This document shows, piece by piece, positions 30,354-30,927 of a stretch of DNA of 64,000 nucleotides. Under the pieces are notes generated by a model. That model was not told the origin of the DNA. It saw only the letters and a program-made list of their open reading frames with translations, and did not search any database. The first letter of the stretch is position 1. Every line of letters starts with the position of its first letter. The stretch lies in the NCBI RefSeq assembly GCF_054482525.1, contig NZ_CM137006.1. One strand, given 5' to 3'. A program made the position numbers and the translations under genes.

Positions 30354-30400
30354 ATTCATTGCCACGTCATCTGTAAGCAATTATTCATATCGTAGACAAC

Positions 30401-30634
30401 TTAGTTAGAGTTAATTAGCTTATCAATCTCTGTAAGAGGTAAAGTTGTCACCTCTGCAACGTCTTCCCGAGACATCCCTTTACTTAGAAAACGCTGGGCG
30501 AATTCCTGTCTTACTTCCTGTCTTACTTCCTGTCTTACTTCTTGATACGCTTCTTGATACGCCTTCTGGAATCCCTTCTCTTCAAACCACTGCGCTAACG
30601 TCTGCCTGGTTTCTCTCCGTGTCTTTATTTCCAT
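30401..30634 (-). CDS. Free-standing small protein homologous to the Rpn C-terminal tail (RpnS-like), 77 aa
   Basis: MEIKTRRETRQTLAQWFEEKG...LSKGMSREDVAEVTTLPLTEIDKLINSN aligns with the last ~74 aa of the adjacent rpnC product. It has its own ATG with an aaggga SD 4 nt upstream and an internal 12-bp repeat array. Confidence 0.6.
   Translation of the reverse strand: MEIKTRRETRQTLAQWFEEKGFQKAYQEAYQEVRQEVRQEVRQEFAQRFLSKGMSREDVAEVTTLPLTEIDKLINSN
30503..30562 (-). repeat. 12-bp tandem repeat array inside the small tail ORF
   Basis: 3 x ttcctgtcttac followed by 2 x ttcttgatacgc, encoding (AYQE)x2-(VRQE)x3 on the minus strand. Confidence 0.8.
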
Positions 30635-30702
30635 ATGTTCCCTTAATTATCTGGTCAGTTAACAATAACAATTATCTGGCTATAACTGATAATACAGACA
30701 AC

Positions 30703-30927
30703 TTAGTTAATCAGTTTATCAATCTCAGCAAGAGGTAAATTTGCCATCTCTGCAACGTCTTCCCGAGACATTCCTTTACTCAGAAGACGCAGGGCGAATT
30801 CTTGCCTTTCCTCCTGTCTTCCCTGCTGAATCCCCTTCTCAATTCCTTTCTCCATTCCTTTCTCCATTCCCTTCTCAATTCCCTTCTCAATTCCCTTCTC
30901 TTCAAACCACTGCGCCAGCGTCATCAT
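30703..30927 (-). CDS. Candidate intragenic RpnS-like small protein (internal in-frame start within rpnC), 74 aa
   Basis: An in-frame Met-Met (residues 241-242, ...GGESMMTLAQWFEEKG...) is preceded by an SD-like gggaggggag with about 7-nt spacing. Separate translation of the tail has been described for Rpn proteins. Confidence 0.4.
   Translation of the reverse strand: MMTLAQWFEEKGIEKGIEKGMEKGMEKGIEKGIQQGRQEERQEFALRLLSKGMSREDVAEMANLPLAEIDKLIN

Follow-up and report, generated by a model that had tools for sequence, protein, structure and literature searches.

The window (the whole 64-kb stretch of DNA analysed here) contains panB (28662..29456) and panC (29468..30319), followed by a 314-aa gene on the opposite strand and then by panD (31921..32301) and yadE, which is the gene order of K-12 (yadE-panD-rpnC-panC-panB). 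The 314-aa product matches Pfam PF04754 (YhgA-like / Transposase_31, PD-(D/E)XK) over residues 7-207 with an E value of 7.2e-87. Downstream of its stop codon by 68 nt, on the same strand, lies a separate 77-aa open reading frame with its own start. We refer to the 3' part of the larger gene as tail 1 (T1) and to the smaller gene as tail 2 (T2). The features of the locus are listed here.

30324..30354, no strand assigned: hairpin with a 10-bp stem, located between the stop of panC and rpnC_Ss and probably serving as a terminator for both; no other terminator-like site
30387..30601, minus strand: copy 2 of the homologous block, as aligned with copy 1
30394..30407, minus strand: 14-mer copy at the rpnC_Ss end, in the same register as the rpnC copy
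30401..30634, minus strand: rpnC_Ss, 77 aa (WP_000404118.1), with Shine-Dalgarno AAGGGA at 30639-30644 and ATG at 30632-30634
30503..30567, minus strand: tail 2 tandem repeats of 12 nt (4 aa), 3.2 copies of VRQE and 2.4 copies of AYQE, from a repeat scan
30602..30695, minus strand: spacer ('filler') of 94 nt between the blocks, holding the Shine-Dalgarno, the ATG and the first 11 codons of rpnC_Ss (MEIKTRRETRQ)
30689..30921, minus strand: copy 1 of the homologous block, from the ACG codon (Thr243) right after ATGATG to 7 nt past the 14-mer
30696..30709, minus strand: 14-mer copy at the rpnC end, made up of the final base of an Ile codon, one Asn codon, the stop TAA and the 7 nt that follow
30703..30927, minus strand: rpnC_S, intragenic, 74 aa, with a putative start at ATG ATG (30922-30927) and GGGAGGGGAG (30931-30940) 3 nt upstream of it
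30703..31647, minus strand: rpnC (yadD), 314 aa, the full-length Rpn nuclease RpnC_L, identified by PF04754, WP_000339915.1 and synteny
30819..30900, minus strand: tail 1 tandem repeats of 12 nt (4 aa), 6.8 copies of KGIE/KGME, from a repeat scan

E. coli strain 1190 has the same locus with 100% identity over 801 nt, and there the two genes are annotated as 'Rpn family recombination-promoting nuclease/putative transposase' and 'hypothetical protein' (WP_000404118.1). In RefSeq the label of rpnC_Ss is 'hypothetical protein', although CFT073-type records give it as a pseudogene, an incomplete 'transposase'. Elsewhere in the window, identity to strain 1190 is 99.13% over 20213-28714, and one extra C is present at 23603 (CCACCGGG in the window versus CCA-CGGG). 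The extra base splits the yad-fimbrial outer-membrane usher gene into overlapping open reading frames (22753..23610 and 23582..25438), and the usher is therefore probably frameshifted in this strain. The sole Rfam match above gathering score in the window is the sRNA family tp2 (RF02030) at 55446-55559 (+), with 103 bits.

The Rpn family is described in the main text of Zhong et al. (2023, PNAS 120:e2307382120, PMC10400941), which reports an internal promoter and start codon in every rpn gene, identifies the full-length RpnL as a toxic PD-(D/E)XK DNA endonuclease that is bound and inhibited by RpnS through a long repeat-bearing helix, and credits the family with a contribution to phage defence. 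The crystal structure of RpnA_S (7TH0) given there consists of three helices, the first of which is long, and tails vary from strain to strain by four-amino-acid (12-nt) repeats in this first helix that begin 8-20 residues after the initiating Met of RpnS. Repeat number sets the specificity between RpnS and RpnL, to the extent that for RpnC a single additional KGIE repeat in one partner alone abolishes inhibition. The same text clusters rpnC_Ss with RpnC_S, indicating that it arose from rpnC, and assigns independent origins to the tail duplications of rpnC and rpnE. The rpnC-rpnC_Ss arrangement is thus already known from that work, and the arrangement in the window is the same in kind as its rpnC_Ss; the 14-mer, the block borders, the 94-nt spacer, the prevalence of 29% and the systematic mismatch in T1/T2 length described below go beyond its main text. 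The start assigned here to RpnC_S at ATG ATG (30922-30927) is our own reading of the window and is not taken from Zhong et al.

The product of rpnC_Ss is 57% identical to RpnC residues 236-314 (E 6e-26) and, with E 8.6e-9, aligns to the C-terminal positions 213-273 (of 273) of TIGR01784, the model of the Rpn family. Its AlphaFold2 model (pLDDT 77.6) comprises a long helix at residues 13-51 and short helices at 56-62 and 67-75. In a Foldseek search of the PDB with this model, RpnA-S (7TH0) ranked second with a target-normalised TM-score of 0.71 and an E value of 4.4, which is not significant, and RpnA_S was not among the matches of a PDB sequence search with the 77-aa protein; a match there to a designed 'CAP repeat' protein was put down to a generic helix-turn-helix-like motif. 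A Pfam search of the 77-aa protein at E <=0.01 returned no DUF4351 (PF14261), a label that free-standing RpnS genes carry, according to the main text of Zhong et al., in 'some species' only and that is therefore not a defining feature of RpnS. The sole Pfam match, VMAP-M1, fell below its own cut-off and was disregarded, and PADLOC gave only weak, irrelevant matches.

Translation of rpnC_Ss appears to be under constraint. Its Shine-Dalgarno, ATG and open frame are kept in all 15 two-tail loci sampled, and its length differences among them are all multiples of 3 nt, a pattern that points to coding constraint. The repeats begin at residue 20, within the predicted helix 13-51, and change between strains in 4-aa steps, with one variant carrying a 2-aa deletion. 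By these comparisons the 77-aa frame is a bona fide homologue of the RpnC tail with conserved translation signals. The promoter scan predicted no minus-strand sigma-70-like promoter for rpnC_Ss, and the single plus-strand match of the promoter/terminator scan is within chance (1 found, 1.9 expected). A terminator and hairpin search found none between tail 1 and tail 2, so that rpnC_Ss is probably co-transcribed with rpnC and rpnC_S.

The two tails end alike. The 64-kb window holds exactly two copies of the 14-mer AGACAACTTAGTTA, spaced 302 nt apart (30394-30407 and 30696-30709), and a search of the window allowing one mismatch gave no third match; the chance expectation is 0.01, and two or more matches occurred in none of 100 shuffles. 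Read on the minus strand as T-AAC-TAA-GTTGTCT, it contains the TAA stop of both open reading frames in identical register (30401-30403 for the 77-aa frame and 30703-30705 for rpnC). These counts confirm an earlier note on this DNA, which had reported identical 14-bp repeats 302 bp apart spanning both tail stops. The same note was mistaken, however, in describing the flanks on the coding 5' side as only weakly similar: the 124 nt adjoining the 14-mers are 85% identical (30409-30532 versus 30705-30828), and another 41 nt are 88% identical (30562-30602 versus 30882-30922). Both stretches lie in a single blastn alignment that begins at the 14-mer (30394-30602 versus 30696-30922, E 1.2e-40), and the two copies have in common two exact runs of 24 nt (30452/30748 and 30572/30892), each longer than the 14-mer. 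The offset between the copies takes the values 302, 296 and 320 nt owing to a 6-nt indel just before the stop (LIN* versus LINSN*) and to unequal numbers of 12-nt repeats. The realistic substrate for recombination is formed by the stretches of 85-88% identity with their 24-nt exact runs, not by the 14-mer.

The borders of the homologous block can be placed closely. Read in the coding direction, the first homologous codon is ACG (Thr243), right after GGGAGGGGAG-TCT-ATGATG, and in most strains homology extends 7 nt beyond the 14-mer (...GTTGTCTGCRTTAT), past which tail 1 continues into CAGTTATAGCC, whereas tail 2 and all single-tail genomes continue into GAATAAT. To judge from these alignments, the second tail copy at the rpnC locus is evidently the outcome of a roughly 220-base duplication. 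This supports the proposal, also made in the earlier note, that a tail-carrying unit of about 300 bp was duplicated and then diverged, and it agrees with the published derivation of rpnC_Ss from rpnC.

Within this block the 14-mer holds no privileged position. Both copies are exact in 4 of the 15 two-tail loci read (the window, L002, L028 and L030), while the others carry 1-3 mismatches in one or both; with the pair kept in so few loci, the 14-mer is not a conserved site. The earlier note had taken absence of the repeat from genomes carrying both tails as grounds for giving up its reading; for the exact repeat this is the state of most of the loci read, and it refutes a conserved site but leaves the duplication unaffected. 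A single tail occupies the same locus in E. albertii, E. whittamii, Escherichia sp. E1V33 and Escherichia sp. MOD1-EC7003. In three of these four species the tail ends in (T)AACTAAGTTGTCT followed by GCGTTATGAATAATCGC or GCGATATGAATAATCGC, and in E. whittamii it ends in AACTAAATTGCCT. Since single-tail species end in the 14-mer or its 13-nt form, the 14-mer represents the ancestral end of rpnC and not the scar of an insertion. It is the distal edge of the homologous block, without special status, and its identity in this strain most probably reflects common descent, possibly helped by gene conversion.

The copies are joined by a spacer of a different character. Local alignment of the 94 nt with the sequence upstream of tail 1 and downstream of tail 2 gave no significant similarity (458 and 645 of 2000 shuffles, respectively, scored as high), and the locus is therefore not a clean head-to-tail duplication. 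A candidate homology upstream of the block, between RDRET in RpnC and TRRET in RpnC_Ss, showed no demonstrable excess over chance and is not claimed. Sensitive blastn against 5426 E. coli genomes placed the spacer nowhere but at this locus; its 'plasmid' matches proved to be records wrongly labelled as plasmids, either as large as a chromosome or covering part of one, and none lay on true plasmids. Inside the spacer is a 25-nt direct duplication (AATTATCTGG at 30645 and 30670), which is present in all 14 sampled two-tail loci with E. coli-like flanks (window included), where the interval is 101 nt, and missing from the two-tail locus L012, where the interval is 76 nt.

The second tail of rpnE offers an instructive comparison. 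In K-12, ypaA (rpnE_Ss) is likewise a free-standing tail copy directly downstream of its parent gene, on the same strand and with a 12-nt repeat difference. In a head-to-tail duplication the end of one unit abuts the start of the next with no foreign DNA between them, and this is the state of rpnE-ypaA but not of rpnC. The rpnE-ypaA pair is a clean tandem, its second copy running from the same ribosome-binding site and start (AAAAGGAGAGATTAATG) right after the rpnE stop. At the rpnC locus, in contrast, homology begins only after the start codons, and 94 nt of unrelated spacer supply a new ribosome-binding site and N-terminus. The 3' ends also differ, being diverged in rpnE-ypaA and the best conserved part at the rpnC locus.

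The spacer is present in 1555 of the 5426 complete E. coli genomes (28.7%), always in the chromosome and at this locus, with identity below 95% in just two of the carriers. It occupies 1558 places in these 1555 records, with up to 3 per genome, so that in a few genomes the locus may be duplicated or the tail modules may number more than two. Carriers of both tails include CFT073, EC958, ATCC 25922 and strain 042, while K-12 and O157:H7 have one tail; occurrence in 1555 complete genomes excludes an assembly artefact as the source of the two-tail state. One divergent two-tail locus, L012, is recorded as E. coli although its panC is just 90% identical to that of the window. Its spacer is shorter. 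The two tails of L012 are near-identical, whereas identity to the window is 87.5% for the spacer, a combination that points to concerted evolution.

Several further variants of the locus were seen. In AF10 (L033) a gene for an IS3-family transposase stands in the place of tail 2. Between the terminator hairpin and panC, L005 (O157:H7), L015 (E. albertii) and L016 (E1V33) carry an extra 130-220 bp or so that is missing from the window; this insert begins TATACTCGTCATACTTCAA.TTGCATGTGCTGCG and exists in two length variants, and we take it to resemble the ERIC/IRU intergenic repeat. In the K-12-like LAM_HS (L001), an assembly of a laboratory stock, rpnC is annotated as frameshifted, but its tail has the length and architecture of that of MG1655, with a few substitutions, so that the frameshift lies further upstream or is an assembly error.

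The repeat regions of the two tails do not match. In the window, the stretch from WFEE to the conserved A-x-R-L/F-L motif is 34 aa long in tail 1, against 26 aa in tail 2; the repeat region of RpnC_Ss is thus 8 residues, or two repeat units, shorter than that of RpnC_S, and it is of a different repeat type. The lengths are unequal in every one of the 15 two-tail loci, which argues against rpnC_Ss encoding the cognate antitoxin, and from the finding of Zhong et al. (2023) that a mismatch of a single repeat abolishes inhibition, RpnC_Ss would be expected to pair with the resident RpnC_L, and to inhibit it, only poorly. RpnC_Ss may instead be a non-cognate dimer partner, or simply homologous sequence for recombination of the rpnC tail. 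Among the 15 two-tail loci the repeat region of tail 1 ranges from 10 to 34 aa, with most at 26-34 aa, as against 14-22 aa in nine intact single-tail strains or species, and the longer repeats of the two-tail loci may reflect shared ancestry.

Exchange between tails is apparent at the level of the population. The 3' block of 37 tail sequences resolves into 24 haplotypes over 109 columns, all four gametes are present at 102 of 190 informative site pairs, and the sequences do not sort into one group for tail 1 and another for tail 2. The second tail of AVS0171, FCI23 and EC958 differs by 1.9% from the single-tail allele of DETEC-P793 and by 8.7% from the tail 1 of the same strains. Strains also differ in which type of tail 1 is paired with which type of tail 2, a reassortment exemplified by GPEC60. 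In HS-02 (L004) there is one tail, in which repeats of the tail 1 type, frameshifted within the 12-nt repeats, are joined to a 3' end and flank of the tail 2 type; it looks like a crossover product or fusion of both copies. DETEC-P793 was considered as a deletion through a crossover in a 21-mer (flank GCATTAT then GAATAAT), but this would rest on a single SNP and is not claimed. These patterns show that tail alleles are heavily recombined in the population, but they do not imply a programmed process or mediation by the 14-mer. Of the earlier suggestion that the repeat could support exchange of tails, the exchange therefore holds, through the four-gamete pairs, the EC958-type tail 2 and HS-02, while the longer stretches of 85-88% identity are a more realistic substrate for it than the 14-mer.

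These data bear on several ways in which the locus could have arisen. To a chance origin of the 14-mer pair we attach no credence, as 0.01 pairs were expected, none of the 100 shuffles held two and the alignment enclosing the repeat has an E value of 1e-40. Exact direct repeats bracketing a unit of about 300 bp, together with a spacer that has no detectable origin, as imported DNA might, could mark the 14-mer as a specific site, either a target-site duplication or the attachment or recombination site of a mobile tail cassette. Yet homology runs more than 200 nt inward from the 14-mer, making the direct repeat the whole tail and no short scar, the exact pair is confined to 4 of 15 two-tail loci, and the 14-mer or its 13-nt form already exists in species with a single tail. 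Such a cassette would be recognised by a short repeat flanking an unrelated insert and by the unit's presence at other sites, but here the module was seen at the rpnC locus alone and never on a true plasmid, and the main text of PMC10400941 reports that neither target-site duplications nor defined ends were found around rpn genes; we consider a mobile cassette extremely improbable. The 14-mer identity might alternatively be sequence that has not yet decayed, tail 2 being a functionless relic of the duplication that is carried because it is short and adjoins the essential pan genes. The annotation of rpnC_Ss as a hypothetical gene or pseudogene would fit such a relic, as would the lack of a predicted promoter, the repeat length that never equals that of tail 1, the lack of a tail 2 in 71% of E. 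coli genomes and in four further Escherichia species, and its destruction by an IS3 element in AF10. A relic seems unlikely to us nonetheless, given an open frame, ATG and Shine-Dalgarno intact in 15 of 15 loci, including L012 despite its divergent panC (90% identical), indels that are all in frame (6 or 12 nt), and the analogous YpaA (RpnE_Ss), which was assayed alongside RpnC_S and, when tagged, was seen to be made as a protein in K-12 (main text of PMC10400941).

A further reading assigns the duplicate an active part in variation. Tail 2 would be a stored cassette and working partner of rpnC, with gene conversion or crossover, perhaps triggered by the RpnC nuclease, repeatedly swapping or rebuilding the specificity helix that is common to toxin and antitoxin and so changing toxin-antitoxin specificity. 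The mosaic alleles, with four gametes at 102 of 190 site pairs in 109 columns, are in line with it, as are the EC958-type tail 2 that is nearest to a single-tail allele, the near-identical tails of L012 beside a spacer 87.5% identical to that of E. coli, the reassortment of T1/T2 types (GPEC60) and the fusion-like tail of HS-02; RpnL as a possible initiator of such recombination events is raised as speculation in the Discussion of PMC10400941. However, ordinary homologous recombination between strains over long times could give all of these signals, none of them indicates a frequent or directed process, and the close relatives EC958, AVS0171 and FCI23 differ only in the number of 12-nt repeats of tail 1, with tail 2 unchanged. 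On balance we hold this reading to be distinctly improbable. The pilE/pilS loci of Neisseria are a silent-cassette system that works by gene conversion. The rpnC locus resembles them, without belonging to their class, in that the variable portion of an expressed gene is partly copied close by, that conserved flanking stretches could guide exchange and that the alleles are mosaic. It differs in that rpnC_Ss is a complete, translatable small gene, that no dedicated recombination signal was found and that there is no sign of high-frequency switching. If the cassette reading were true, it would amount to a built-in diversification of an E. coli defence system, beyond slippage of 12-nt repeats.

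The locus is very probably best described as rpnC followed by rpnC_Ss, a duplicate of the antitoxin tail encoded by the 3' part of rpnC, which then diverged. According to this account, the 3' part of rpnC encodes a small C-terminal domain that is also translated separately as the antitoxin RpnC_S, and a single copying event duplicated this part along with some 21 nt beyond the stop. The copied tail became a separate 77-aa gene by gaining a new ribosome-binding site and an N-terminal extension of 11 residues, and is probably co-transcribed with rpnC and rpnC_S. RpnC_L would be toxic, small proteins of the RpnC_S type would bind it through the long repeat-bearing helix and block it, and RpnC_Ss would be a second such protein.

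The 'hypothetical protein' or truncated 'transposase' of RefSeq is rpnC_Ss and so belongs to a toxin-antitoxin and antiphage family that has been characterised. Beyond annotation the significance is slight, the additions being the modest ones of defined borders, a spacer without a source, a prevalence of about 29%, mosaic alleles and repeat lengths that never match. These comparative details could nevertheless help in designing experiments on the role of the second tail, be it that of a non-cognate antitoxin, of a decoy or of a partner in recombination.
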